Source: a virus
Lineage: Duplodnaviria; Caudoviricetes
DNA length: 51,448 nt
IMG/VR virus record: IMGVR_UViG_3300012923_000003
Span: 1 to 51,448 of that record
Reading direction: 5' to 3' (one strand)
The notes beneath the pieces are model-generated. The model searched no databases, was not told the DNA's origin, and was given only the letters and a program-made list of their open reading frames with translations. The translations under genes and the position numbers were made by a program. Shown in pieces: positions 3,644 to 26,300 of this stretch. How positions within the stretch are numbered: position 1 is the first letter of the stretch; each line of letters opens with the position of its first letter.

Positions 3644-3873
3644 TAGGTTTTGCCGCCATGCCATACGTAATCAGACCACGCCATGTAAGTCAGAGAGCTT
3701 ATAATGCACTGTACCGTGCATTATTCAATGGCCTCTTACCCAAGGATCATCATAATTGTGATGGTGTAGACATCGAAGATCAGGAAGCGCTTAACGAAGC
3801 GATGAATGATCTCTACAAAGCTAAGATAGCAAGACATCTACTTAAGACGGGTTATCCACTTAAGCCACGTTGA
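3640..3873 (+). CDS. Hypothetical protein
   Basis: ORF fills the gap between NYN and the next promoter. Confidence 0.55.
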   Translation: MIGFAAMPYVIRPRHVSQRAYNALYRALFNGLLPKDHHNCDGVDIEDQEALNEAMNDLYKAKIARHLLKTGYPLKPR

Positions 3874-3898
3874 CTTAACTCACTGGCCATGTTAGACT
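3870..3898 (+). promoter_or_regulatory. Sigma70-type promoter, copy 2
   Basis: TTGACT-TAACTCACTGGCCATGT-TAGACT, nearly identical to 1716-1744. Confidence 0.75.
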
Positions 3899-3905
3899 TT
3901 AGATA

Positions 3906-5534: not shown

Positions 5535-7020
5535 CCAACCACAGACCATCATCCACGCCAAGGCGGGACACCAAGTTCCCAAGGAATTGTGGGAGACTGC
5601 ATTACGCAAGTGTCCTACGGTATCTGGTTATGCCATCCGTGACACTCACGATGACAAGACCACTCTCGAAACTGAGCACTATACTCAGGCAGTCACCGTT
5701 GACAATATGTCGACACTGGAAGGGCAGGCCAAGGAATATGAACGAGTTTACTATCTAGCCAATCTTCCTGGCACTCATACTAAAGATGATGTGCAACCAT
5801 TTGTACTGACCATCATGGAAGATGAGCAGGACACTATCGGCATCGATATACTTTCCTTCTTTCTGGAAGGAGACTTCCCCAAATACTCTGATCCCAAATC
5901 AGGACACACTGACGAATACAATTTCGCCTATGAAATTGTTATCCCTACCTTGCAGGACATGTTCATGGCCGCCGGTCAAGACATCGCCCTGTTCACTGCT
6001 GCTCTGCACAAGCCATTGTTCGAGAAGAATTTGATGGCTCATGTCAACCATCGCGCGGCATTCGTGTTTCTTCCTCTACAGGGCGATCCGATTAAATTCG
6101 GTACCAATGAGCTGGGTCTCGGCGCTGACTGGGGTAGCTGCTCACAGCATTTAGACTTTGCCAAGGTGGAAAAACCTATTATCGCGGCAGTCGCAAAGGC
6201 GGCGGGGAAATTCAATCCATTTAAGAAGGCAGAGCCGGCATTGCCTGGAGGGGTTTACCATACTCCTGAAAAGAAGCCAGTCGAGGATCCAAAACCTGAT
6301 ACAGCAATCAACGCCGGCAAAAAGCTGATCAAACTTCCATCAAAACTGGATAAGTCTGGCAGGAACCGATGGCTACGTCTATTCAATGGTGGTGATCTGC
6401 CAAAAGATCATGATCATCGAGATTTCCAGGGTCTCTGGATTAGTCCGGAAGCTCTACCCTATGCACAACGCGATGTTGCTACATTGGCTCAGGTCGATGC
6501 TCTCGGAGCCGAGATGCGTAAGGGTGTTAAGTCTCCCCCCAAGGATATGCGGCCACCGCCAAGTTCTGCTACGGATTATCTGCCCACATTGACTGATGCA
6601 GACATGACCGAACAGACTGGCATCTTGGCCAAGTTCGTCGACCGCGACAAGGTGCCTTCAGCTCTGGATATTCAAAAGATGGAGGCCAAATGGCCAACCT
6701 ATTCGGAGAAGATGGGCATTCCATTCGAAGGTATGTTCCGTTGGACTGACATCGAAATTCTCGAAGTCTGCGGAGGACATAAACCAGCTATGATGTTGGT
6801 CTTGGAATTCAGACGTCGGCTGATCGAGAAGTGGGACCCTGCTGGCTTCACTGCTTCGGTCAAGACTGGAACCGAGGCTGCCAAACATGTTGCAGCCAAG
6901 GAAATCCTCAAACCCGGTGAAACCAAGCAAGTTGGTAGTACTACATTCAAAGCTGCGGCTGAACCGACCACTGCGGCAGCAAAGCGGAATGCCTTGTTCG
7001 GCATCAAGAAATCAGCTTAG
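5527..7020 (+). CDS. Degenerate class-II glutamine amidotransferase-like N-terminal domain plus unknown C-terminal region
   Basis: IIHAKAGHQVPKELWE...PTVSGYA, DDVQPF, LEG and TDEYNF parallel phage GATase-II motifs; catalytic N-terminal Cys is absent. Confidence 0.55.
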   Translation: MINQPQTIIHAKAGHQVPKELWETALRKCPTVSGYAIRDTHDDKTTLETEHYTQAVTVDNMSTLEGQAKEYERVYYLANLPGTHTKDDVQPFVLTIMEDEQDTIGIDILSFFLEGDFPKYSDPKSGHTDEYNFAYEIVIPTLQDMFMAAGQDIALFTAALHKPLFEKNLMAHVNHRAAFVFLPLQGDPIKFGTNELGLGADWGSCSQHLDFAKVEKPIIAAVAKAAGKFNPFKKAEPALPGGVYHTPEKKPVEDPKPDTAINAGKKLIKLPSKLDKSGRNRWLRLFNGGDLPKDHDHRDFQGLWISPEALPYAQRDVATLAQVDALGAEMRKGVKSPPKDMRPPPSSATDYLPTLTDADMTEQTGILAKFVDRDKVPSALDIQKMEAKWPTYSEKMGIPFEGMFRWTDIEILEVCGGHKPAMMLVLEFRRRLIEKWDPAGFTASVKTGTEAAKHVAAKEILKPGETKQVGSTTFKAAAEPTTAAAKRNALFGIKKSA

Positions 7021-7101
7021 TTACCCACGAACGTGGAGCGAGCGATGGGTAACTGAGGCAGGCGTGGGTTGTGTAGTCCTCCCAACATAATCCACGCCTG
7101 T
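7016..7101 (+). other. Two long intergenic hairpins, the second with a CCTCCCA loop
   Basis: 12-bp stem 7016-27/7046-57; 17-bp stem 7058-74/7085-7101. Confidence 0.75.
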
Positions 7102-7119
7102 TCCTAATAGGAGGAATTG

Positions 7120-7743
7120 ATGAACCCGCACATTCTCAATATGATTGCCTTGAGAAAGACCGAATTCACCCCAGACATTGCAATACTTGAGCAAAGCCAG
7201 TTTCAACTGGTGTTCATATGTGATGATCTAATGACGGCAGGGAGGAACTATTCATTGATTGCTGACTGCTCTGCTAAGATCGCCAGAGCATTCACTCAGA
7301 GACCCTATAACTTCTATCGAAAGAGAACTGATGGAAGTTCTGTAGTCATGAACCCATCTGGTAAGATGACGACTGGATGCTATAAAATCAAAGGAGAAGT
7401 ATATTCTGTGCTATCTTCTGAAATGATTAGACTTGACAATCATTACCAGAATGGAGTACAATTCAAGCGTTATCGAACCAAGCTTCTATATCCGACCACA
7501 CCTTCCGGCGTGATTGAGAATAAGTCTGAGGACGGAAGTCCTCTGCCCTATACCCTGCAGGGCAAGAAGCGGTTCACCCTCCCCGAACGAGTTGATCCCA
7601 TAGAAGCGTGGATGTATATTGGTCTGCGATCCTATTGGGATGATCTATTGGATGGAGGCTTTGCCTTTGAACCCGTACATTTAGCTGAACCAGAAAGACC
7701 TCGCAATTGGCTCCCCAAGTATTACCACTGGCAGAACAGATAA
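7120..7743 (+). CDS. Gamma-glutamylcyclotransferase (AIG2-like) fold protein, probably inactive
   Basis: LVFICDDLM.GRNY, IKGEVYSV, RLDNHY (canonical LDxxE), EAWMYIG; RBS GGAGG. Confidence 0.7.
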   Translation: MNPHILNMIALRKTEFTPDIAILEQSQFQLVFICDDLMTAGRNYSLIADCSAKIARAFTQRPYNFYRKRTDGSSVVMNPSGKMTTGCYKIKGEVYSVLSSEMIRLDNHYQNGVQFKRYRTKLLYPTTPSGVIENKSEDGSPLPYTLQGKKRFTLPERVDPIEAWMYIGLRSYWDDLLDGGFAFEPVHLAEPERPRNWLPKYYHWQNR

Positions 7744-9284
7744 CCGAAAAACATATTGCCTGCCCTGACTGTGACTCATCCGATGCTCTGTGTAAGTATT
7801 CAGATGGTCACAGTTATTGTTTTAGTTGTCTAACTTATACTCCACCTGTTGATAAACAAACAGAAGAGGTGTTCAGCTATGAGTATCTCCCATATCGTGG
7901 AATTAATAAGGAAATCTTTAGCTTCTATTCTTCTAAAACGAAAGTGGGAGATGACGGTCGTCCAATCTCCATCGGGTTTCCTTACCCTAATAATTCATAT
8001 AAAATTAGAACCTTAAATAAGAAAGCATTCTATACGCAAGGTGATATAAGTAAAGCTGGTTTGTTTGGTAGAAACAAGTTCGCAGCAAGTAGTCACAAGA
8101 CCGTGACTATAACAGAGGGAGAGCTCGATGCTCTATCGCTTTATCAGGTTCTACGCAGTCCTGTCGTCTCTGTTCACAGCGCTTCTAGTGCTGGAACTGA
8201 TGTTAGCCTGGACCGATCCTGGGTTAACTCGTTCGAAAGAATACTACTTGCGTTTGATGGAGATGAGGCAGGACGTGAAGCAGCATCTAAAGTTGCAAAG
8301 TTGTTTGATTACAACAAGGTTTTCATGGTGCGGTTCCCAGGGGGAACCCGCAAAGACGCCAATGATTACCTCCGAGCCGGAGAAAGGGACGAACTAGTCA
8401 CACTATGGTACAATGCCAAGAAGTTTCTTCCTGAAACCATCATCTCGACTTTCCCTGAGTTCGAGAAGGTTATCCGAGAGCAACCTCAGCATGGTGTGCC
8501 ATATCCATTCCCCACTTTGAACTTCATGACTTATGGCATCCGCACCAGTGAGTCAGTGTTAATTACGGCTCAAGAAGGTGTCGGTAAAACAGAGGTGATG
8601 CATGCAATCGAACATCAACTACTCGTGGAAACAAAGGATGCAATTGGCGCAATCTTCTTGGAAGAGCCTAAGAGGCGACACCTACAAGCTATTGCAGGTA
8701 TTCACCTCCAGCGTCCCGCACATCTACCGGACAGTGGTGTCACAGACACTGAAACTATCCAAGCCATACAAAACGTGGTTAGGCTGGACGAGCGCCTTCA
8801 CATCTACTCTCACTTTGGATCAGATGATCCTGAGATCATTCTCGATACCATTAGATTTCTGGTATCCGAACGTGGTTGCCGTTATATTCTTCTCGACCAC
8901 ATCACTATGGTTGTTAGTGGTCTTGGAGGGAAAGATGAAAGAACTTCACTCGACTATCTTTCCACCCGACTTGAAATGATGGTTAAAGAGTTAGACTTCG
9001 CTCTAATCATAGTGAGTCACGTCAATGACGATGGTTTTACTCGTGGTTCCCGGAACATCTCTAAGATTGCCGACGTTCGAATTGATCTGTTCAGAGAGAT
9101 CACTCACCCTGATCCCATTGTCCGGCGAGTTACACGTATGGTCGTCTCCAAGAACCGGTTCTGTGGTCGTACGGGACCAGCGGGGGAACTGCTATTCGAT
9201 CCTGCAACTTACACCTTAACAGAGGACTTAGGATATGGGATACAATCTCAAGATAATCTGCGAACTGAAGCAATGGCGTCTTAA
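7707..9284 (+). CDS. DNA primase/helicase (T7 gp4-like)
   Basis: Zn finger CPDC...YCFSC; TOPRIM TEGELD and FDGD; Walker A QEGVGKT; LDHIT; RGS; KNRF. Confidence 0.96.
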   Translation: MAPQVLPLAEQITEKHIACPDCDSSDALCKYSDGHSYCFSCLTYTPPVDKQTEEVFSYEYLPYRGINKEIFSFYSSKTKVGDDGRPISIGFPYPNNSYKIRTLNKKAFYTQGDISKAGLFGRNKFAASSHKTVTITEGELDALSLYQVLRSPVVSVHSASSAGTDVSLDRSWVNSFERILLAFDGDEAGREAASKVAKLFDYNKVFMVRFPGGTRKDANDYLRAGERDELVTLWYNAKKFLPETIISTFPEFEKVIREQPQHGVPYPFPTLNFMTYGIRTSESVLITAQEGVGKTEVMHAIEHQLLVETKDAIGAIFLEEPKRRHLQAIAGIHLQRPAHLPDSGVTDTETIQAIQNVVRLDERLHIYSHFGSDDPEIILDTIRFLVSERGCRYILLDHITMVVSGLGGKDERTSLDYLSTRLEMMVKELDFALIIVSHVNDDGFTRGSRNISKIADVRIDLFREITHPDPIVRRVTRMVVSKNRFCGRTGPAGELLFDPATYTLTEDLGYGIQSQDNLRTEAMAS

Positions 9285-9501: not shown

Positions 9502-10308
9502 ATGATCTATCCGTGGAAACTTAACTTCTGGCAATCCGGTGAATGGCAGGTGTGCAATGAGAGGCTTAAAGATTTGGAAAAGGCTGGTACTACATACAAC
9601 CCTACGCGGGCAGATTTGTTCGCAGCTCTTCGAGCAACATCAGATCGCGATGTTCGCGTCGCGATTATCGGACAGGACCCGTACCCCGATAGCAGATATG
9701 CCACCGGTTTTGCTTTCTCCATTGCAAGAAGCTTCAATCCAAATGAGTTTCCACCAACCCTCAACGTCATCTTCAAAGAATATGTCGCCGACCTCGGATA
9801 CCCCTTTCCACGTTGTGGTGATCTCAGCCAATGGACAGCACAAGGAGTGCTTCTTTGGAACGCGGTCCCAACTTGTCAGTCAGGTCGATCTCTTTCTCAG
9901 GACTGGGACGAGTATTCCTTCCTTACAAAGGAGATCATTCAGCGTCTGTCTCAACGAGGTGTGGTGTTTGCATTTCTCGGGGCAGTTGCAAAACGGTATT
10001 TAGAATATGTTGATTTGACCAACAATGAGATCATCTTAACATCCCATCCATCACCACGTGCCAACAGGTTTTCAAGGACTCCGTTCGAAGGGTCCAGGTT
10101 GTTCTCAACCATCAATGATAAACTAATCTCTCAAGGCCTAGCTCCTATAAATTGGAGATTGGACGATGTACCAGATCGGAAGAACTCAGGTGAAACGGAA
10201 GTTCGGCAACATGGACGTGTATGGCATAGTAAACGATCTCTATCGTGGCAACCGGGGCAAGCTACTGGTGGAAGTAATAGCGACGGGCGGTTGGTGGTTC
10301 ATGAGTGA
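9502..10308 (+). CDS. ung: Uracil-DNA glycosylase, family 1
   Basis: VAIIGQDPY, ATGFAFS, GVLLWN, HPSPR, PINW. Confidence 0.93.
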   Translation: MIYPWKLNFWQSGEWQVCNERLKDLEKAGTTYNPTRADLFAALRATSDRDVRVAIIGQDPYPDSRYATGFAFSIARSFNPNEFPPTLNVIFKEYVADLGYPFPRCGDLSQWTAQGVLLWNAVPTCQSGRSLSQDWDEYSFLTKEIIQRLSQRGVVFAFLGAVAKRYLEYVDLTNNEIILTSHPSPRANRFSRTPFEGSRLFSTINDKLISQGLAPINWRLDDVPDRKNSGETEVRQHGRVWHSKRSLSWQPGQATGGSNSDGRLVVHE

Positions 10309-11228: not shown

Positions 11229-11432
11229 ATGAATGATTTATTCAATTTAATCTGTAAATTAAATGCTACTGGCATTAGTTGGTCTATAGATAAATACCCT
11301 GGATATTATGTAGCCAGAGTTAATTCTTATCATGTAGTTAAACGTGAATACATTGATGATCTCTTCAATACAATGATTGAATTAGCTAATAGTCCCGAAC
11401 GTCCTCCCATTGTAAATGGATGGGATGATTGA
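11229..11432 (+). CDS. Hypothetical protein
   Basis: RBS GGAG; coupled to polA. Confidence 0.65.
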   Translation: MNDLFNLICKLNATGISWSIDKYPGYYVARVNSYHVVKREYIDDLFNTMIELANSPERPPIVNGWDD

Positions 11433-13381
11433 AGGTTGTAATCGACATTGAAACCAATAGTTTAAACAATCCTAGTCAGATATGGCTGATTGTTTGTAAA
11501 GAAATTGAGACTGAAACCTATCAGATTTTCAGAAATTTAACCACCGACGATACCGAAAGGAAAAGATTTAATGACTTCAGATCAGATCCAACTATACACT
11601 GGATTGGCCATAACTTTCTTGGGTATGATCACCCTGTGCTCGTGGCTCACGACCTCTTATGTTCTGGGGATATACAATGCACTGATACCCTCATCATATC
11701 CAAGATGGTCGACTACCCGAGACCTGGACACTCCATTGAAGACTATGGTTTGGAGTTCCAATATCCGAAGATAAAGTTTAATGATTGGACTAAGTATTCT
11801 CAAGAGATGGAGGATTACTGTGTTAGAGATGTGGACATCTGTCACAAGATATATCAAAAATACTCCAGGTATGTCTCTAACCCTATACATAAACCTTCTA
11901 TTAATCTTGAGCATGACTTTCAGATTATTGTTAACAACCTTCATAGCAATGGTTTTAGCTTCAATAGGGATAAGGCTATTCGATTACTTACTAAGGTACA
12001 AGAAGACTTAGCTATACTAGATAAAGATATCTTAGAAGCTTTTCCCCCTAAGCTTAAGCTTATACGTGAGATAACTCCCAAGGAGACTAAGTATGGCACT
12101 ATTAGTCTTACTTCAATTCCTAAGGAAATGCGCAATGATATCTCTGATCTTAGTGTTGGCAGTCCTTTCTGCTATTGCCATTGGCATAGCTTTAATCCAA
12201 GTTCTCATAAGCAGATTATTGAAATACTTGGAGAAGCAGGATGGCGACCAGTAGATAAAACTGACACTCACATTGAGACTGAGAGAGAGCTAGGTAAATT
12301 AAGATATACTAAGAGAACTCCTGAGCTTGACATACATATCAAACAGTTGTATGCTAAGCTTGAAATAATGAAGAAGGCTGGATGGAAGATCAACGAGAAG
12401 AACCTCGATACTTTACCAGGAACAGCCCCGCTATCCGCTCGCAGTCTTGCGAAGCGTATCCTCCTTGAGTCCAGACGCCGTACGCTTACCGAATGGCTGG
12501 CATTAGTACAACCAGACGCCCGTATCCACGGTAAGTTCTATGGGATAGGCGCCTGGACTCATAGGATGGCTCACCGTAATCCCAATACTGCTAACATACC
12601 AAATGATCTAAATGGAATAGGTCATAAAGTTTTATACGGCAAGGAACTACGTTCTTTCTGGTGCGCACCTAAGAACCGATTACTAGTCGGCGTGGATGCA
12701 GAAGGTATCCAGTTGCGCATCTTTGCTCATTACATCGATGATCCCGAATTCACCGAAGCATTGGTCAATGGTAAAAAGGAGAACAAAAGTGATCCTCACT
12801 CCCTTAACCAGAGAATACTTGGACCAGTCTGCAAGTCGCGCCAGAGTGCTAAGAGGTTCGTTTACGCCCTACTTCTCGGCGCTGGCAACGGAAAGCTTAC
12901 CGAGATATTGGAATGTTCAAGAGAGGAAGCTGATGCCGCTCTTGAACGCCTTATGGATAGATACCAAGGTTTCACATATCTCAAACGAACTGCCATACCA
13001 GCGGATGCGAAACGTGGATGGTTTCGAGGACTCGATGGCAGAGCTGTTAGGATATTTGGCGAAACGGTCAGTGAGAGAAGACACTTATGTATGTCTGGCT
13101 ATCTTCAGAACGGTGAGGCTATTGTAATGAAGCGAGCTACACTTAAGTGGCATGACTTACTTAAGCAAGACAATGCTATCTTAGTAAACTTAGTTCATGA
13201 TGAATGGCAAACAGAAGTCCCCAACGATATGGAGGTAGCATTACGAGTAGCACAGATGCAGGCAGACAGCCTACGCGAAGTAGGTGAAGAACTTAATCTC
13301 AAATGTCCATTAGCAGGAAGCTACTGGAATGATGATCATAAAGATTATACAATTGACAAGGATTGGAGTAAAACACATTGA
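11429..13381 (+). CDS. polA: DNA polymerase family A with 3'-5' exonuclease
   Basis: Exo motifs IDIET, GHNFLGYD, YCVRD; motif A DAEGIQLR; motif B KRFVYALLLG; motif C VHDE. Confidence 0.97.
   Translation: MKVVIDIETNSLNNPSQIWLIVCKEIETETYQIFRNLTTDDTERKRFNDFRSDPTIHWIGHNFLGYDHPVLVAHDLLCSGDIQCTDTLIISKMVDYPRPGHSIEDYGLEFQYPKIKFNDWTKYSQEMEDYCVRDVDICHKIYQKYSRYVSNPIHKPSINLEHDFQIIVNNLHSNGFSFNRDKAIRLLTKVQEDLAILDKDILEAFPPKLKLIREITPKETKYGTISLTSIPKEMRNDISDLSVGSPFCYCHWHSFNPSSHKQIIEILGEAGWRPVDKTDTHIETERELGKLRYTKRTPELDIHIKQLYAKLEIMKKAGWKINEKNLDTLPGTAPLSARSLAKRILLESRRRTLTEWLALVQPDARIHGKFYGIGAWTHRMAHRNPNTANIPNDLNGIGHKVLYGKELRSFWCAPKNRLLVGVDAEGIQLRIFAHYIDDPEFTEALVNGKKENKSDPHSLNQRILGPVCKSRQSAKRFVYALLLGAGNGKLTEILECSREEADAALERLMDRYQGFTYLKRTAIPADAKRGWFRGLDGRAVRIFGETVSERRHLCMSGYLQNGEAIVMKRATLKWHDLLKQDNAILVNLVHDEWQTEVPNDMEVALRVAQMQADSLREVGEELNLKCPLAGSYWNDDHKDYTIDKDWSKTH
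12327..12355 (+). promoter_or_regulatory. Putative internal sigma70 promoter within polA
   Basis: TTGACA-17-TATGCT. Confidence 0.45.
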
Positions 13382-13505: not shown

Positions 13506-13733
13506 ATGTTACACGCAAGAGAAGATTATAATAGATTTCAAGATCCTGCGGGATTGATACCCGAAGATGAACCTGTGTTTCTACTTAGAGCACAAGATAA
13601 ATTGGCATGGCATATCGTAAAGATGTATGCATTTTGTGCTGAATTAATTGGTCAACATCAATTGGCAGAAGTATGTAATACTCATGCCAAGAAAATGAAA
13701 GAATGGCCAATTAAAAAGACACCAGATTTATAA
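13506..13733 (+). CDS. Conserved-looking phage hypothetical protein
   Basis: PEDEPVFLLRAQDKLA pattern; RBS AGGT. Confidence 0.7.
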   Translation: MLHAREDYNRFQDPAGLIPEDEPVFLLRAQDKLAWHIVKMYAFCAELIGQHQLAEVCNTHAKKMKEWPIKKTPDL

Positions 13734-13744
13734 GGATAATACAA

Positions 13745-14239
13745 TTGGTTAAATACGGTAAGACAGAAACAGTTTATGTTCAAGGCAAGGTATCTTGGTT
13801 TAGAAACAAGACACCTAACCAATGGAATAAATACGCAGTTCAAATTCATCCTAATGTCAAAGACTTAGAAGTCATTCGTGAACTTCAATCCCAAGGCTTA
13901 AAGAATGTAATTAAGAAAGATGATGATGGATACTATATTAGCTTCACTAGACCGGTGACTAAAGAATATCAGTCTGGTAGAATACAAAGCTATGCACCAC
14001 CTACAGTGACTGATAAAGATGGTAACATCTATGAAGGTCAGGTAGGTAATGGCAGTGATGCTACTTTGAAGCTTGAAGTCTATGAGCATGCTACCCCAGG
14101 TGGTAAGAAAGCCAAAGCTGCTCGGTGGGTATCAGCTCGGATAGATAATTTAGTACCTTTTGAAACTGAGACAGATACTTTCCCTGAACAGAAGGTAGCC
14201 ATCGAAGGATTAAAGGAACAACCTGAACAGTTATTCTAA
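13745..14239 (+). CDS. Single-stranded DNA-binding protein (putative)
   Basis: Position after polA; GKVSW, PxVxD and VGNGSDATL; acidic C-terminus ending in F. Confidence 0.75.
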   Translation: MVKYGKTETVYVQGKVSWFRNKTPNQWNKYAVQIHPNVKDLEVIRELQSQGLKNVIKKDDDGYYISFTRPVTKEYQSGRIQSYAPPTVTDKDGNIYEGQVGNGSDATLKLEVYEHATPGGKKAKAARWVSARIDNLVPFETETDTFPEQKVAIEGLKEQPEQLF

Positions 14240-15720
14240 TCCTCCAGAATACTAGTTGACTGGAGTGCCACATATCTCTCGTGTGCTAAGGATCCCGTAG
14301 GGCACCGGCGAGGGAAGCCCAACTAATACTTAATTCTACAGCATGAACCCTACACGCTTCCAGAAAGCTTACTAAGAAGTAAGCAACCCCACCCTCTGGT
14401 CGGACTCAGGTACCGGGCTGTATGAACCTCGGATATAGTCCGAGAGGAAATGAACCAATGTGACTTCCCTACTGGGAATGTAACCATCAGGGTGACAACC
14501 TTAAAGTCAGCAATAGCCCAGGAAGATCGGTGCAAATCCGATAGAGGTTACCAAGGGGTCTACTTCTTAGGTAGATAAATCCTCTACTGTTCAAGGCGGT
14601 ACTGGTGAGCAAGATGGTGAGCAAAGGTAGCGAGCACAACCGTAAACCAGTCTCATTAGCTGGAGCGGCAGATAGCAAATAGAACGCGTATGTGGCGGCT
14701 ATGGTGCATAGTATGTCTAACCTCTGTAGAGGACGCGCATGAGGATAAAGGACTTGTCTTAAATGGCTAACAAGCTGAAGCGGTCTGAAGTTTGACTAGG
14801 TGTACGGAATAAAGGTTGATCTACCACTCCCTGTTGGTTCGATTCCAACACTCCGTGGGACGGAGACTGGCGGCAATGGTGGCGCGCATAAAGCTGAGCA
14901 AGTTTCGGTGCGATGCCGATAGAGCTTGAGTAGCAGATGGCTCAGTTAGTACCCGTGTAGTAGATGGATAGATGACCGAGGGACGTAGGCACTGTGAAAG
15001 GTGTCAATGCTGGTTCGAGTCCAGTCCTAGTATGTGTCGTAATGTAGTAGGCTTGTGATAAAAGCGAGATCCGAACTGGGAACACCATCAGTGACTGGTG
15101 TAGCGTTAAGGGTAAGAGATACCTCTCAGCCTCTCTGACCCCACTGTTACCACTGTTCGAGTAAGGTTGGCGCTCTAGATGTGAGTGACTCTTGAATACC
15201 CACACCCTTCAACATAGTCCTGAACCTACCCTAGACGGCCCTGTGGTTCTGGTCGCGTAGACGCAGCATTTCTTGTACCGCACACTGGATACGGATAACC
15301 TCCAGGCCTATGAGCGGGATGTGCAAGGAGTCGGAAGATCGAGAGATGCGCAGTAGCGAATAGTCTATTCGCAAGACTGGATATAGACTGTCTACATTGA
15401 CAGGGGTATGAACGCCGCGTAAAGATCACCGCGAGACGCGTACCAAGCAACCGACTACTGAGACTAAGCGTACCGCTGAAAAGGAAAGATAAGCATACGC
15501 CGAATAGCAACATAGGACGTATTATAGTAGGTCGTTACATGACTGAGATAATATGCAGTAGCTGGTCCAGCAAGTCCATAGAACTTAACCGTAGGAACAC
15601 CGGACTAGTGTTCAACTGCATGGAGGATGTACCGTGAATATTCGTTCCTCACAGCAGAAACCCAGACCTCCTTAAGAAAATCAACAGGCAGGGGTGGGCC
15701 ACGTTTGAGCCCACCCCAAG
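14240..15720 (+). ncRNA. Candidate giant structured non-coding RNA with multiple tRNA-like T-arms
   Basis: No credible ORF over 1.48 kb; more than 25 helices found by eye, with G.T pairs on the + strand; T-arms at 14526, 14585, 14832, 14905 and 15009; closing GC hairpin 15691-15717. Confidence 0.75.
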
Positions 15721-15739
15721 CTACAAAGGAGAGCGTGCC

Positions 15740-16030
15740 ATGAAGAAGATTATCATGGTCGACCCTAATGATTTCTTCACCGGTCGATCAAAGCGTGATA
15801 TGATCCCAATGGATGATCTAAAAGTATACAAGAAATGGAAGAAGTTCTTGAAAAAGGAAGAAGAAGAGAAGAATAAAGCTAAGAAAGGCCCAGAAGGATG
15901 GTGGGCTAGGAAGTCTGTTGCCGAGAGGACATGTATCATTGCCATCTTTGGTCCGCCAGCAGGCATAGCTTATGTCTTCGGACTACTACAGGTTGCTAAA
16001 CTATTGGCTATATCGGCAGGTGTCCACTGA
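15740..16030 (+). CDS. Hypothetical membrane protein
   Basis: RBS AAGGAG; K/E-rich N-terminus and hydrophobic C-terminus. Confidence 0.75.
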   Translation: MKKIIMVDPNDFFTGRSKRDMIPMDDLKVYKKWKKFLKKEEEEKNKAKKGPEGWWARKSVAERTCIIAIFGPPAGIAYVFGLLQVAKLLAISAGVH

Positions 16031-16890
16031 CAGAAATACGAACATTAATACAAGACATCTACCGAATGGTAGGTAAGGAAGAGAATTGGCTGACAAGTGA
16101 TATCGCTACTCAATTCACGTCTGAACTCACAATTAAACTCCAAGGATCCTTCAGTCCGCAAAGCCGCACTGGCTTACGTCTCAGCGGTCTGGGCCCAAAG
16201 TGCCCGGCACAACTGTGGTACTCAATACATACCCCATTGGCTGCAGAGCCCCTCCCCCCGTGGGCCAGGATCAAATATATCTACGGACACATACTTGAAG
16301 CGCTTGTAATCGCAATGGCCAAAGCCTCCGGCCACGAAGTAACAGGAGAACAAGATGCTGTATCTGTTGATGGGATCATCGGGCACCGAGATTGTGTTAT
16401 CGACGGGTGCATCGTTGATGTTAAGTCTGCTAGCAGCCGTGCTTTCCAAAAGTTCAAGGACGGTTCAATCGCATCCGACGATAGCTTCGGTTATCTTGAT
16501 CAACTTGATGGGTATCTTGTGGGCTCCTTGGATGATCACCTGGTAAGAAATAAGACTACTGCCTATCTATTAGCAATCGATAAACAATTAGGTCACATGG
16601 TGTTATATGAGCATACTGCGCGCGAAGAAAGTATTAGAAAAAGAATTCGAGATTATCGAGATGTCATCGCTCTTGATCGAGCTCCGCAATGCACTTGCGA
16701 AGAAGTACCCGATGGAAAGTCAGGAAACATTAGACTGGGCAATACAGCAAGCTATAACTCGTTTAAGTACCAGTGTCGTCCACAGCTTCGAACCTTTCGC
16801 TATAGCGACGGACTAAGATACTTAACCAAAGTAGTTAGAAAACCTGATGTTCCGGAGATAAATCGTCATGGACAAATCATATATAACTAA
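16027..16890 (+). CDS. PD-(D/E)XK exonuclease (start CTG 16027 or ATG 16066)
   Basis: LRLSGLG..C..LWY, GHILE, GHRDCVIDG.IVDVKS, GY.DQL.GY. Confidence 0.85.
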   Translation: MTEIRTLIQDIYRMVGKEENWLTSDIATQFTSELTIKLQGSFSPQSRTGLRLSGLGPKCPAQLWYSIHTPLAAEPLPPWARIKYIYGHILEALVIAMAKASGHEVTGEQDAVSVDGIIGHRDCVIDGCIVDVKSASSRAFQKFKDGSIASDDSFGYLDQLDGYLVGSLDDHLVRNKTTAYLLAIDKQLGHMVLYEHTAREESIRKRIRDYRDVIALDRAPQCTCEEVPDGKSGNIRLGNTASYNSFKYQCRPQLRTFRYSDGLRYLTKVVRKPDVPEINRHGQIIYN

Positions 16891-17073: not shown

Positions 17074-17406
17074 ATGCTACGCAATAAATTCGAGGCTAGA
17101 ATATACGCTAGCCTCAAAGCCAAGAAAATTAAGTTTAAATATGAAGGTGAGAAGATACTGTATCTTATCTCAGGACACTATGTTCCAGACTTCATCATTG
17201 CTACCAGACATGGAAAGATATACGTCGAAACTAAAGGACACTTCCGTCCCGAAGCTAAACGTAAAATGCGCGCCGTAAAGAAACTCAATCCCCAATTAGA
17301 TATTAGAATATTGTTTTACTCATACAGTAAGTCGAGTGTTAAATGGTGCGTCAAGAACAACTTCCCCTATGCCATAGGAGATATCCCCGATGAGTGGCTT
17401 CATTAG
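17074..17406 (+). CDS. Endonuclease I (T7 gp3-like Holliday junction resolvase)
   Basis: RNKFE, YE, YVPDF, YVETKGHF, RKM.AVK. Confidence 0.9.
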   Translation: MLRNKFEARIYASLKAKKIKFKYEGEKILYLISGHYVPDFIIATRHGKIYVETKGHFRPEAKRKMRAVKKLNPQLDIRILFYSYSKSSVKWCVKNNFPYAIGDIPDEWLH

Positions 17407-21220: not shown

Positions 21221-23395
21221 TTACTCCTTACCCTTATTAAAGGTATCTTCTAATTTCTGCAGAGACTTATCGTGAGAAGATATAATAGCATTCATCATTG
21301 GTCTAGTAATAGATTGTAGAGCTGGATCAGCATTATGTAATATACCTAGAACATAGGCGCTAGTATTACTACCTTCTTTAGATTGAACATTACTCAATTG
21401 ATCTAAAGCACCATTGACACGTCGTATAATAGCATTAACATTACGTCCATAAACATTTGAATCTAATATAGCCCCTGGATTAAGAGGAAGCTCTAGAAAT
21501 CTATTATGTTCATTATCCCAGTGAACTTCAAACTTCTTAGGTAAGGGAGCCTTATCGCCTAAGGCCGCAGTAGGTGTTGGAGCATATTGATATGTTGCAT
21601 TAGCATTAGATATATTCTTAAAATCTTCTCGGAACAGAACTGGGAACTCATTCTCTCCCCACCTCTTCATATTATCCCAGGCTACTTTACCTTCACCACC
21701 TTGCTGCCGAAGCTTCCACATACTATCGACAATATCAGTAGATAACATACGATCATAAGCCGAGTATTTACCCGGAACATACTGTCCTTTCAGATTAGTA
21801 TAATCCATCTTGAGCTCATCCATCAATCCCCAATTATTAGGAGCAAAGGCATACTTAGCTACATTAAGTTTAACATCATCGGGAGCTTTAGGATCCGCAA
21901 TGATCTTAGGGATCATTAGATAATTATCAACTAGACGAGTAGATGGAGCAATGTTAGCTTTCTTAGCTTGTTGAATATCTTCCTTAGCACTTGCCGGATT
22001 AAGTGGATCAATCTGAGCTGCTGCGGCAGCTAGTTTACCTTGATAGATTGGAATTAGATCTTGAGGCAAGTTAGATAACAGTCCTGCCTTCAACATAGCA
22101 TCGCCCCATTGTGGGGCAATCTTAGCCATGCCTGCAATAATTCTTAATTGATCTCCCACCTTAGGTTGGTTATAAAGATCTAAGTGAGTCTTCTCATCAA
22201 TGGATTGAGTTATACGGGCTGCAGTATGCGCAAAGCCTAGTTTCTCATCAGAGATATATTTGATGTATTCATCTAGAGGCCTAACCTGTTCAGCAATATG
22301 ATTCTTAACTTTATCAGGACCTATTAAACCTATGGTAGTCTGACCATTAGAGTCAGGTTCATTAGCTTTACGTATTGCATTAGAAACTAAATTAGCTTTT
22401 AAAGCAGTGAGACCCATAACACCTTGTTCAAGTCTGACTGGATCTACTTTAGATCCTTCTGCATTAGCTTTGGTAATAGTATCTACTAAACCCTGAGCAG
22501 TCTGAGTACCTCCAGCTATATTAGTAATATCCAAGGCAGCTTGAGTATCGTGTCCAACTGTCTTAGCAAAAGACTGTTCAGCTTTAGTTACTTTATCTGA
22601 TAGCTTACCTTGATCGTTGGCTCGCTCTGACATCTCTTGCTTACGTTCCCAATCCTTGGATGAGTACTTAGCTATATAAGCATAGACTTGATCCGGAGTT
22701 ACTTGGCCACGATCCCACATTGAAGCTAAGATAGCAGCATTAGGAACTTGATGTTGATTAACTCCACCTAAACCTTCTGTTACTGCATTCCTAACCATGG
22801 TAGTAACTTTATCATGTTCAGACTTAGCATTGCCAGCATTACGATTAATATCTTCTAATAGATTACGCATCACTGCATTGGCAGGATCAACTCCACTAAC
22901 ATTCTTAATAGTATCATCAATGTAATCTTTATAACCTGGATACTGAGCCCGGAGTTGCTTAGCCAGAGAATTAAGATTCATAGTATAGAGAGTATCATTA
23001 ACATGACCCATATTCTGGGCCTGAGATATACCTAATTGAGTAGCTCTATCCAAGCCTGATTGTAAACCGCCCGGAATTGGAGGTGTCTCTGCCTGAGCTA
23101 AGGTCTGAGGTTGAGGAGGGATTAAACCTTGCTGTTGATTACGGATATTTAAATAGGCCGCAGTGTAATCATCTCTTAACTTGTCAACACCAGCAGTAAC
23201 CTTATCTTTAAGATAAGACTTCTCCGAAGTGTCATAAAGCTTAGCCGCTTCTTCAATACCAGTACCTAGAGTACTAAGAGCTATACCTGTGGAAGTATCG
23301 GCTTTAGTAATATGTTCTGGCTCTTGAATAGGACGAGATACTCTGGTCCAATCCGGAGGATTTATCTGCGGTGGTTGAATGTCAAATGAAACCAT
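21221..23395 (-). CDS. Internal virion (ejection) protein
   Basis: Size, A/Q/N-rich helical composition, position after the nozzle. Confidence 0.7.
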   Translation of the reverse strand: MVSFDIQPPQINPPDWTRVSRPIQEPEHITKADTSTGIALSTLGTGIEEAAKLYDTSEKSYLKDKVTAGVDKLRDDYTAAYLNIRNQQQGLIPPQPQTLAQAETPPIPGGLQSGLDRATQLGISQAQNMGHVNDTLYTMNLNSLAKQLRAQYPGYKDYIDDTIKNVSGVDPANAVMRNLLEDINRNAGNAKSEHDKVTTMVRNAVTEGLGGVNQHQVPNAAILASMWDRGQVTPDQVYAYIAKYSSKDWERKQEMSERANDQGKLSDKVTKAEQSFAKTVGHDTQAALDITNIAGGTQTAQGLVDTITKANAEGSKVDPVRLEQGVMGLTALKANLVSNAIRKANEPDSNGQTTIGLIGPDKVKNHIAEQVRPLDEYIKYISDEKLGFAHTAARITQSIDEKTHLDLYNQPKVGDQLRIIAGMAKIAPQWGDAMLKAGLLSNLPQDLIPIYQGKLAAAAAQIDPLNPASAKEDIQQAKKANIAPSTRLVDNYLMIPKIIADPKAPDDVKLNVAKYAFAPNNWGLMDELKMDYTNLKGQYVPGKYSAYDRMLSTDIVDSMWKLRQQGGEGKVAWDNMKRWGENEFPVLFREDFKNISNANATYQYAPTPTAALGDKAPLPKKFEVHWDNEHNRFLELPLNPGAILDSNVYGRNVNAIIRRVNGALDQLSNVQSKEGSNTSAYVLGILHNADPALQSITRPMMNAIISSHDKSLQKLEDTFNKGKE

Positions 23396-26300
23396 TAGGG
23401 TTTATTTTCCTGTAGTAATTTAGTTCTATATTGTTCCAAACGAGTGCTGGGCACATCGGACTGAAACCACTTCTTGGTCGGAACTTTAGAAGTTGCAAAG
23501 TATTGATTGACTTGATCAGCTTGAGTTTCATAACCATTTAAAGCTTTAGAAAGTACATCAGCTCTCATATCCAACGGCATTCCTGACCATTCCATTCGAC
23601 CAAAGGCACGGCGCATATATTCATTGGCTTGATTCTGATCTAGATTAGAGGAATCTTGCAGACCGCGTCTAATCTCTTTGATAACCATCTTCTCAGTATA
23701 TTTCTGATACTCTTCTTCAGCCTTACGAATATTAGTTATCTGGTAAGCATCATCATCCTTCTGATTATGTAGACCAGTAGCTCCTTGGAATAGCGCATTC
23801 AAAGTACTGATATTACCTTGATAACCTTCATTCTTAGATAGCCAACGTCCAGTATTCATAGCAGTTAATACTTGCCAAGAAGCATTGATACTAGATACTT
23901 CTTTAAAGATATCCAAAGCATCTTCTACTTTGAAGGGATGCTCCATCTCTTTAGAATTACCTCGCATCCATGAAATCATAGATAAAGCGAGAGGACTAGT
24001 ATTGTTAATTGTATTGGCGAAGATACTTACCGAAGCACCGCCCATAATCTTCCACCAGACATTGTCAGACCAGAATTGATTGAAGCCTTGAATACCATAA
24101 CGAGGACCAATGTTATAGAAGTTACCTTTCTCTAGATCCCCTTTGCCCGTTGCTAAGGCTAATAAAGTAGCTGGTAATCCTTCCATCACTGCAGAAGTAA
24201 ACCAGTTCTGACCCATCACATAACCACGATCAATAGCTTCCTTCCGCCAGACATCATAAAGTGGTAAACCTGTAAGACCTGTAGCAATAGGTAAACCATA
24301 TAGACCAGCATAAATAGCCGCTGTTCTAGTCCTAGCAGCTCCGCTTATTCTATTACTAAACATTAATTCAGATAATCTTAATTGGTATGTAAGAAACTGA
24401 GTAGTAAGTCCCAGAACACCAGTATGGAGCTGAGAGCTAGAAGCCCTAGACATGTTAGTAGAAAGTAAGTCAGCCCTTTGTAAAATCTCAGCTCTCTGAG
24501 CGCTACTAATCGCGCCACTAGGATGTATCTCTCGGAACTCCCTGTAAGCGGTATACCAAGCTCCGAGCCTAACAGAGCGTTCACCTGTTCTGAAGAATGC
24601 TTGTCCCGCATTTAAGAAATTACCCCAATCGTTACCGATAAATTTATGTTGCATATTATCGTTCAAGGCATATTCACCGGCGACATGTTCAAAGCCAGTT
24701 TCACGTAAAAGTCTATTAGCTTCTAACCAATCTCCTGCTTTACCATAATTCAAGGCAGTAGCCATCTCATCCAACTTAGTCAGGAACCCTGGAGTTCTAT
24801 TAATGTTACCCCAACCATGAAGGAATGCGCCTGCCGTACCTCCAGCACCATGTCGAAAGCCAGCAATACCAACAATACTTGCGTAGGTCTGTGCTTGTAC
24901 TAAGATCTGTGCTGGATTGAAGATACCTAACTTAACGTTGAAAGCAAAGGATCTTAGAAGACGAACAGGATCATGAACATGACTCAATGCCCATAGCGGA
25001 ATGATGGCAGCCTTCTCTGTTAGTCCGCCTTTCTCATAGGCAGTATCCGCTAAGTGCTGAGTTATACTATGAATCCAAGTATCAAAAGTATTAGGCACAC
25101 CAACGAATTGATTAATCTTCATTCTATTAGCAAGTAGCTTCTGCACTACATCATGAGGCGCTCCAGACTTAAAAGCCGTCTCATCTCTAGCTAGATTAAA
25201 GTTCCAGAATGGAGAAGCTCTGATAGAAGACTCATCCTCTTTAAGATATGGACCTGCTTCGCGGAGCCAATGCTCGACAGCGAAGATCTTATAGTCATCC
25301 ATGTAAGTGCTATTGATCGCTCTATTAAGAGCACGGTTCATAGTGGGAATAGGATCAACCATCTTGGCTGGCTCATACTTCCACAATGAACTATCTCGTC
25401 CACCCGTGATGGTTCCAACTTCATCGGCATCACGCTGTAGATTGAAGGCTACTCTATTCTGGGCAGCATCAGATCCTTCACGGGTTCCGTCCCTAAACGT
25501 ACCGGGGTAACGTTGTTCCAATGATTTATCTATATCATAGATTTTTCTATTCTTAGGAACAACGTAAAATGGTTCAGTCTTACTCAGACGTGGGGGAAGA
25601 ATATTACCTTGAGGATCTCTCTTAGGATTAAACCAACCATGTAATTTATCCCAGTCAATGGGAAGAGTACGTTCAGCAAGAACCTTAGCTTCGTCTATTC
25701 TATTATCTCTAATTAAGACACGGACAGCATCCATGCGTCTGACAATGTCTCTACCTTTAGCTCTATTGTCTATTGGCATTACGGTCTGATCTCCAGTGTA
25801 GAGATCATTGTACTTAGTACGTTTATCGTTGGCTACTGAGCCCGCCCGTTCAGGAATTATTTGAGCTTGTTTAATATAATGTTCATAATCATATTCAAAG
25901 TGACCGCCACCACGTCTTGTAACATGATTGAAGTCTAGGGGCTTAGTCTCAACTCGATCAGTTAAGACATATCTAATTCGTTCTGCACCTGCTACATCAC
26001 TAAAATTCTTGAGAGGATATTCATCGGGATTATAAATTCTAATTACTCTACGAGCACCCGATGCAACATCTTTCTCCATCTTCTCCCAAATCTGTGGATT
26101 AAGTGCACGACTCTGTAAATTATATAACTTCTCATCTCCCTTACGCGTACCCATGATTAAGATATTGTCTTTACCATGAGGCATTGTCTTCTCTTGAATA
26201 CCATCGAAGTATCCCGAGACAGAAGAAGCTTTAGTTCTACCTGGACCTAACACAGAAATCTGATGCTGTTCGGTACCAATGCGGGCACGGTTACGAAACT

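Follow-up and report, generated by a model that had tools for sequence, protein, structure and literature searches.

GOLLD and ROOL are the closest described systems to the element reported here. They are phage and prophage RNAs found near tRNA islands, as ROOL often is, and both form RNA-only cages; many GOLLD members are longer than 800 nucleotides (nt), and the GOLLD linker sometimes contains a tRNA (10.1101/2024.12.08.627333). At a smaller scale, the Fremin et al. 2023 survey of IMG/VR gives 8,495 candidate structured RNAs of 29–151 nt (PMC10690425). The locus described here lies in a complete virus record of 51,448 bp with direct terminal repeats (IMGVR_UViG_3300012923_000003), referred to below as the window. 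An earlier note on this DNA had read the stretch as a giant structured RNA of a new kind, encoded on the + strand amid replication genes. This proposal was borne out, as the stretch is non-coding, conserved and covarying, shows G.U asymmetry and matches no Rfam family, and its support comes from the covariation and not from helices picked out by eye or from folding energy. The predicted RNA occupies positions ~14323–15717 (+) and is called the T-arm RNA after its most characteristic hairpins, which have the form of the tRNA T-arm.

Like GOLLD, the T-arm RNA is phage-borne, very large, multi-domain, rich in covarying helices and linked to tRNA. It differs from GOLLD in showing no sequence or structure match and in its length of ~1.2–1.4 kb, about half as long again as GOLLD, which is often longer than 800 nt. 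The T-arms lie within its own fold rather than in neighbouring tRNA genes, and the locus is the replication module of soil phages. With ROOL it shares the character of a large ornate phage or prophage RNA without a known protein partner, but there is no model match, the RNA is much longer and its predicted architecture is different, with no pseudoknots or cage contacts established. The T-arm stem and loop consensus and the junction connectivity of T-arm 3 resemble tRNA-type modules (tRNA, bacterial Y RNA and the tRNA-like domains of tmRNA); unlike tRNA there is no cloverleaf, acceptor end or in-register anticodon arm, and the modules are embedded in a 1.4-kb fold. The intergenic IMG/VR source and the covariation-based approach are those of the Fremin et al. 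survey, in whose accessible text no kilobase-sized RNA is described (PMC10690425); single hairpins of the giant RNA might be among its candidates. The T-arm RNA is GOLLD/ROOL-like in kind and unrelated to both in sequence and fold.

Conservation and covariation of the intergenic stretch

Relatives were collected via the two flanking proteins, which gave 14 and 32 IMG/VR loci and 50 metagenome contigs. The flanking genes lie 1.5–4.1 kb apart in 32 of the 33 distinct IMG/VR contigs carrying both, and most of these gaps contain a stretch of at least 1 kb without long + strand open reading frames (ORFs). The exception is locus L043, in which the genes are 174 nt apart (5827–6001). Near full-length alignments to six IMG/VR contigs and further metagenome contigs were obtained with blastn and iterated nhmmer, leaving 13 sequences once duplicates were removed, ten of them clearly distinct. 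These ten full-length homologues are 1,175–1,425 nt long, share 59–87% identity and have an identical order of domains. They were aligned using MAFFT, which is not structure-aware, as sets of seven (A1) and ten (A2) sequences. The conserved region extends from ~14323 to the hairpin at 15691–15717, just ahead of the next gene, and begins 1–6 nt past the upstream stop codon in L002, L004 and L022.

An invariant block (15040–15072) with 26 specified bases is present in eight phage contigs, the window and seven others. A search for the exact 26-base pattern found only these seven clade contigs besides the window in IMG/VR and nothing in 185,579 prokaryote genomes (species), and blastn with the 1.5-kb stretch gave no match among the INPHARED cultured phages. 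The carriers of the family are uncultured podophage-like viruses from soil that form one clade, and in every case the RNA is flanked by the 164-aa gene on one side and by a small ORF and then a Cas4-type exonuclease gene on the other. By DNA polymerase, marine podophages of Lentibacter and Roseobacter are the closest cultured phages, at less than 40% identity. In Roseobacter phage CRP-9, the sole cultured one inspected (L104, 9543–9624), ~80 nt separate the two post-polymerase genes, leaving no room for a comparable gene-free stretch. Because the gaps of L043 and CRP-9 are short, the RNA has been gained or lost within the wider group.

As the earlier note had seen, the stretch holds no credible ORF; the longest in 14240–15739 are 42 aa on the + strand and 95 aa on the - strand, with none conserved. 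No reading frame is common to the relatives, and translated similarity falls on several frames alike and on both strands and becomes fragmented as members grow more distant. The alignment has 451 internal gaps, of which 356 are not multiples of three and 95 are, while the alignment of the 164-aa gene in the same genomes contains none. The fraction of variable columns by codon phase is 0.66/0.61/0.63 in the stretch versus 0.46/0.41/0.88 in the 164-aa gene. The absence of a shared frame and of codon periodicity, together with the frame-breaking gaps, rules out a protein-coding gene or pseudogene, and the 1.4-kb stretch is non-coding.

Base pairing was examined by counting the predicted pairs that had changed on both sides, with 500 column shuffles and pairing partners slid by 1–3 columns as controls. 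RNAalifold predicted 300 pairs from A1, with 90.2% of cells paired, and 119 of these pairs were changed on both sides, compared to 57.6±5.1 after shuffling (0/500 shuffles reached the observed value) and 22–31 after sliding. A2 gave the same result, with 133 of 290 pairs changed on both sides against 66.3±5.2 in shuffled (0/500) and 27–41 in slid alignments, and 90.9% of cells paired versus 37–40% in the controls. Many single helices contain three to seven compensatory pairs each. The non-Watson–Crick pairs are mostly G.U on the + strand, as the earlier note had read them, with 274 G.U cells against 66 A.C/C.A cells in the ten-sequence alignment. Because G.U cells exceed A.C cells, the mirror structure on the - strand would be much worse, and the alifold energy is -407 kcal/mol for the + strand versus -376 kcal/mol for the reverse complement. 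The comparison shows a stretch under selection for base pairing, with the + strand as the putative RNA.

No known family accounts for this structure. A cmscan search with 4,227 Rfam 15 models gave no match at the gathering score in the whole window and none in 12 related loci, so that the novelty put forward in the earlier note stands; at E≤10 the only matches in 13700–16300 were two spurious ones at the edge of the region. Membership of GOLLD and ROOL, which we take to be Rfam RF01998 and RF03087, and of OLE, HEARO and raiA was rejected, no covariance model of these matching at E≤10 in 13700–16300. The tmRNA, RNase P RNA and rRNA families likewise had no Rfam match at E≤10, and ARAGORN found no tmRNA. 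A by-eye resemblance to conserved regions of RNase P and to the 3′ end of 16S rRNA was dropped, as no model matched. A literature search of listings and abstracts found no description of this RNA. The T-arm RNA thus appears to constitute an uncatalogued family of ~1.2–1.4 kb, longer than the largest known ornate phage RNAs.

T-arm hairpins and domain architecture

The T-arm signature is a 5-bp stem closed by a G-C pair with a UUCGAnn loop, which is the tRNA T-arm consensus. A scan of the 51-kb window found four strict and one relaxed T-arm within the RNA (14526–15025, +) and no strict one elsewhere on either strand. All five agree with the T-arm of tRNA in having the G53-C61 closing pair and a UUCRAnn loop. 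Three of these are conserved, with covarying stems and fixed loops, and the number of T-arms varies from one to five among members, the T-arm 2 module being missing from L004. T-arm 3 adjoins the 3′ strand of its closing stem and follows the covarying GUGAAA hairpin, giving a tRNA-like junction topology. ARAGORN detected no tRNA or tmRNA genes in the window or in 34 related loci, the Rfam tRNA model gave no match at E≤10, and no complete cloverleaf (acceptor stem, D-arm and anticodon arm with a 7-nt loop) was found; in the register that covaries, the loop of the hairpin preceding T-arm 3 is 6 nt long. A scan for GUGAAA, 7–8 nt, AU, 3 nt and a T-arm returned 42 stretches, four of them in the clade (L048, L050, L053, L107). 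Among the 39 newly fetched loci (L105–L143), 30 carry ARAGORN tRNA genes of unrelated phages and eight have neither tRNA nor clade genes, and the pattern is useless for sizing the RNA family. Since it matches genuine tRNA genes, the spacing from GUGAAA to the T-arm is the spacing from the anticodon loop to the T-arm in tRNA. This hints that the T-arm 3 module may descend from the 3′ half of a tRNA.

The T-arm hairpins extend to relatives whose gaps cannot be aligned fully by nhmmer. At least one + strand T-arm hairpin was found in the gap in 18 of 27 more distant loci, some of which are closely related to each other, so that the following counts are not independent: 36 hairpins on the + strand and none on the - strand in 66.7 kb of gap, against two on the + strand and one on the - strand in the 232.7 kb outside the gaps. 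A covariance model (R1) was built from window positions 14890–15060 and nine sequences, L004 being excluded for its missing module. Besides the members themselves it gave nine weak distant matches (L039, E 0.008; L038, 0.018; L047, 0.046; and six more up to 0.96), with E-values that are rough because the calibration was shortened. All nine are on the + strand and within the same inter-gene gap, and the module of the GUGAAA hairpin and T-arm 3 was recovered in L038, L047 and L039. The alignment of 19 R1 matches, which was fitted to the model and leans towards it, has 23 of 28 pairs changed on both sides versus 16.4±1.6 shuffled and 7–11 slid. Iterated nhmmer found nothing beyond the close subfamily save weak collinear matches, namely 3′ motifs in L083 and both 5′ and 3′ motifs in L007 and L008; in all three loci the order of the 5′, central and 3′ motifs is unchanged.

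In the predicted structure nearly invariant junctions are surrounded by five or more domains, each closed by a helix (Table 1). The loop of helix 14647–53/14658–63 contains a GUCUCAUUAG motif that is present in the distant L007 as well. In L022 AAGCUU takes the place of GAUC in the 15416–15433 loop, and in the distant L039 the UAAAGAUCAC loop is carried on a different stem. The G+C content of the stretch is 0.47–0.52, versus 0.34–0.44 for upstream DNA. The 5′ motif was considered as a repeated phage promoter and rejected, as it occurs in a single copy in the window, and no promoter-like site was called there. The CCUCCUUAA element of the 3′ motif was rejected as an anti-Shine-Dalgarno sequence because its middle base is variable (U, A, G or C). 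The terminal hairpin lies 22 nt ahead of the next start codon and was not called by the terminator scan.

The individual helices of the earlier note fared unevenly. Among its eight local hairpins, 14428–44, 15082–101 (in 8/10 sequences), 15356–72, 15388–403 and 15691–717 are conserved with compensatory changes, but 14465–78 is weak (no covarying pairs, 77.5% of cells paired), 14367–84 is an optional insertion found in three of ten sequences and 14242–65 lies within the unconserved leader. The only one of its eight long-range helices to survive is 14892/14940, which covaries, all six of its pairs doing so only after model-guided realignment. Helices 14795/15026, 15102/15167 and 15047/15225 rely on window-only insertions or clash with a strongly covarying helix, and in the remaining four pairing is incomplete and compensatory changes are few or absent. 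Two of the long-range helices exist only in this phage because of the insertions at 14791–14803 and ~15160–15225. The former follows a local duplication of CUGAAG inside a conserved domain, and the latter lies inside domain 3 and is visible in A2.

Table 1. Features of the window in order of position; fractions are pairs changed on both sides.
Feature	Position	Strand	Remarks
NYN-domain protein (PF01936, E 6e-27), 186 aa	3083-3643	+	ribonuclease fold, early region
Primase/helicase	7707-9284	+	
UDG-family protein	9502-10308	+	
Family A DNA polymerase	11429-13381	+	
164-aa gene	13745-14239	+	directly upstream of the RNA stretch
Variable leader after the 164-aa gene stop codon	14240-14322	+	unalignable among relatives; outside conserved RNA
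A/U-rich 5′ motif opening the conserved region	14323-14337	+	conserved in A1 and A2
5′ domain	14338-14421	+	closing helix 14338-42/14417-21: 100% paired, 2/5
5′ domain, inner helices	14360-64/14395-99 and 14400-05/14410-16	+	3/5 and 4/6
Hairpin with conserved UAUAG loop	14428-14444	+	5/6; palindrome UAUA in 8/10 sequences
Variable periphery of domain 1	14460-14640	+	poorly alignable; holds two extra T-arm-like hairpins in this phage
Two additional T-arm hairpins, this phage	14526-42 and 14585-601	+	variable region
Conserved helices 14639-43/14665-69, 14647-53/14658-63, 14686-93/14733-38, 14694-700/14711-17, 14721-24/14729-32	14639-14738	+	2, 4, 4, 5 and 2 pairs changed on both sides
Nearly invariant junction 5′ of the central domain, AUGAGG.U.AAGG.CUUG ...	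14739-14769	+	invariant columns in A1 and A2; two alternative invariant pairing partners without covariation
Central domain with three conserved T-arms inside	14770-15056	+	closing helices 14770-76/15050-56 and 14780-84/15036-40: 100% and 94% paired, 4/7 and 3/5
T-arm 1 (loop UUCGAUU), directly followed by hairpin 14851-65	14833-14849	+	100% and 96.7% paired; 4/6 and 3/6
T-arm 2 (14904-20) in a three-way junction with hairpin 14924-34	14893-14946	+	outer helix 14893-99/14940-46: 6/6 (model-guided alignment); T-arm 2 stem 2/5
Hairpin 14988-93/15000-05 (loop GUGAAA), 2-3 nt, T-arm 3 (15009-25)	14987-15025	+	most widely conserved module
Invariant block: 3′ strands of central closing helices and following junction	15040-15072	+	
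Domain 3, helices 15102-06/15143-48, 15110-19/15132-41, 15149-53/15243-47	15102-15247	+	6/9 and 2/5
Domain 4	15266-15444	+	most helices with 2-5 pairs changed on both sides
Domain 4 helices	15266-73/15342-49, 15280-89/15301-24, 15351-54/15376-79, 15356-61/15367-72, 15388-92/15399-403, 15405-08/15441-44	+	
Hairpin with invariant 10-nt loop UAAAGAUCAC, palindrome GAUC	15416-15433	+	loop identical in 8/10 sequences, stem varies
Domain 5, helices 15453-64/15565-76, 15467-77/15492-501, 15516-25/15548-56, 15530-35/15539-44	15453-15576	+	2, 5, 2, 7 and 2 pairs changed on both sides (five alifold helices)
3′ motif CAGAA.CC..CC.CCUUAA	15653-15675	+	in 10/10 sequences and distant L083, L007
Terminal G+C-rich hairpin without U-tract	15691-15717	+	97.9% paired, 5/11
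Shine-Dalgarno word AAGGAG and 96-aa ORF (start 15740, to 16030)	15727-16030	+	context, outside the RNA; ORF 51-98% identical among close relatives
Cas4-domain exonuclease	16066-16890	+	PHROGs
Endonuclease I	17074-17406	+	

Proposed role and alternative readings

The stretch ~14323–15717 (+) most probably encodes a folded RNA particle that stands alone and is of the GOLLD/ROOL kind, an assessment held with somewhat better than even confidence and covering identity more than function. Site scans called no promoter-like or terminator-like sites at the RNA borders, three of the ten sequences start 1–6 nt past the stop codon and the last hairpin lacks a U-tract, and from this we infer that the RNA is transcribed as part of the transcript running from the 164-aa gene, in the ssb position, to the exonuclease gene. 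In the proposed mechanism it would be made within this transcript from host-type promoters and then probably trimmed to a stable, compact particle that, speculatively, acts in trans. T-loops either make docking contacts with further regions of an RNA or expose the elbow by which TruB, TrmA, RNase P, the T-box and ribosomal sites recognise tRNA. The T-loops of the particle would act as elbows and the invariant loops UAAAGAUCAC (palindrome GAUC), UAUAG and GUGAAA as docking sites, joining RNA copies or, in the replication phase, engaging host factors specific for the T-arm or elbow of tRNA. The variable number of T-arms and the invariant loops would fit repeated contacts for a host factor, for RNA copies or for both. 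A bolder version, tentative and on balance doubtful, is that this is the largest class of ornate phage RNA yet seen, built by accreting tRNA-derived T-arms on an invariant core, and forms an RNA-only particle or multimer whose elbows capture host machinery. Modification enzymes, RNase P and ribosomal sites would be the candidates for such capture, which if true would be a new viral way of seizing the host translation apparatus.

Very few natural RNAs of more than 1 kb besides rRNA are, to our knowledge, known in a defined fold, and RNase P, group II introns, OLE, GOLLD and ROOL each opened a field of their own. The T-arm RNA family has strong comparative support, clear limits, a fixed locus in a phage clade, an invariant core and tRNA-type T-arms; its clear delimitation, fixed locus and comparative support make it directly testable in vitro. 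It bears on the growth of large RNAs by module addition, on why giant phage RNAs are tied to tRNAs and on how much structured RNA escapes surveys in which motif length is capped near 150 nt.

Several observations weigh against a folded particle that acts in trans. The ten distinct sequences are a small sample and all come from soil metagenomes, and the sequencing runs carrying the stretch or parts of it are 12 soil-metagenome DNA runs, among them a possible source of the record, and no RNA run, with no transcript seen. The structures were predicted from the same alignments used for counting pairs, which favours them; the margin over the slid controls is large despite this. Thermodynamic folding is no better than that of shuffled sequence, the minimum free energy z-scores against dinucleotide shuffles being +0.12 (first 1000 nt, + strand), -0.77 (- strand), -0.27 (14766–15060) and -1.52 (15240–15739). 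The description of the stretch as almost continuously pairable is therefore not above chance, and the earlier proposal fails by this measure, which it had itself put forward. Because the folding energy is ordinary, the structural case rests on comparison. Would-be inter-domain helices are invariant or without covariation, or differ between the two predictions, so that a single globule and a string of independent domains are equally compatible with the data. Covarying palindromic loops, which would be evidence for kissing dimers, are absent from the ten sequences, where the palindromes are invariant apart from the single GAUC-to-AAGCUU switch in L022, and multimerisation is therefore without support. 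A number of T-arms that ranges from one to five is no less compatible with repeated binding sites than with a fixed architecture, and the gene context indicates no partner protein.

That the domains are individually helix-closed, with no covariation between them, would suit a precursor cut into several stable small RNAs (sRNAs), acting as such or as tRNA-derived decoys. The T-arm modules would then be the working parts, diverting host enzymes or tRNA-targeting defence nucleases, or would mark processing sites in the manner of tRNA-like punctuation. The gain and loss of T-arms in peripheral regions, the spacing of 71–73 nt between T-arms 1 and 2, about the length of one tRNA, and the NYN-domain ribonuclease encoded by the phage (3083–3643) agree with this. 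Such a precursor is nevertheless unlikely, as the central domain nests two T-arm modules in covarying helices that span 180–290 nt, unlike a tandem array, the most conserved nucleotides are those of the inter-domain junctions and not of the T-arm units, the order of the domains is fixed in 10/10 members and neither a cloverleaf nor an acceptor stem or CCA end was detected. The perfect tRNA consensus of the T-arm hairpins, and the match of the loop-to-T-arm pattern to real phage tRNA genes in 30 of 39 newly fetched loci, would also be expected of a decaying tRNA island or another functionless pseudogene remnant. This is scarcely credible, since decay would not preserve pairing: compensatory changes maintain helices that are not those of tRNA, blocks stay invariant at 59–87% overall identity and no tRNA is detectable in the 34 related loci.

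The position of the RNA, adjoining both neighbouring genes with no promoter or terminator called between them and ending in a hairpin 22 nt before the next start codon, raises a further reading as a giant cis-acting mRNA leader or processing element for the 96-aa ORF and exonuclease genes, governing stability, anti-termination or translation, with no role in trans. One alifold prediction pairs the 5′ motif with the next Shine-Dalgarno region (87% paired, one covarying pair), but this pairing fails in L021 and L068, and a leader–trailer helix that sequesters the ribosome-binding site of the next gene was rejected as inconsistent in the same two loci. Five domains with more than 130 covarying pairs over 1.3 kb are far beyond any known leader, distant relatives that retain the RNA show no detectable conservation of the small ORF downstream, and CC.CCUUAA varies at the base that an anti-Shine-Dalgarno word needs; a leader is accordingly judged improbable. 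The size of the RNA, its conserved junction nucleotides, its location in a replication module and a GC skew that rises over 14600–15200 are compatible with a self-splicing intron, a mobile ribozyme or the primer RNA of a replication origin. Such an element is very improbable, however, because no group I, group II or other ribozyme model matched at E≤10, there is no reverse transcriptase, homing endonuclease or repeat nearby and the RNA stays at one locus throughout the clade. In relatives, including L043 with its spacing of 174 nt, the flanking genes occur as two intact genes and so are not exon halves. The folded particle of the GOLLD/ROOL kind remains the preferred reading.

Neighbouring genes and other observations

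The + strand from position 1 to ~19.7 kb carries the early and replication genes, and the structural genes (terminase, head-tail adaptor, major head protein and tail proteins) are on the - strand. The earlier note had labelled the gene upstream of the RNA ssb, a label unsupported by Pfam, PHROGs or a PDB sequence search, none of which gave a family match for the 164-aa protein. A single-strand-binding protein like T7 gp2.5 is suggested only by where the gene lies, after the polymerase, and by an acidic C-terminus whose last residue is aromatic. The exonuclease named in the earlier note is confirmed by PHROGs as having a Cas4 domain. Either the giant RNA or RNAs of the host could be substrates of the NYN-domain protein. 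A 40-nt repeat occurs twice, at 1706–1745 and 3860–3899 (+); its copies are 80% identical, contain TTGACT, 17 nt and TAGACT, and are likely to be host-type early promoters.

Another gene-free gap, of 686 nt (7021–7706) and without an Rfam match, lies upstream of the primase/helicase gene. The extra ORFs that adjoin the RNA in distant relatives have no RNA-related domain. Calcineurin-like phosphoesterase genes lie beside the RNA in the gap between the 164-aa gene and the exonuclease gene in L031 (2725–3411), L041 (5203–5934) and L034 (5451–5984). Amid the structural genes of the window there is an ORF of 1,796 aa at 23395–28785 (-).

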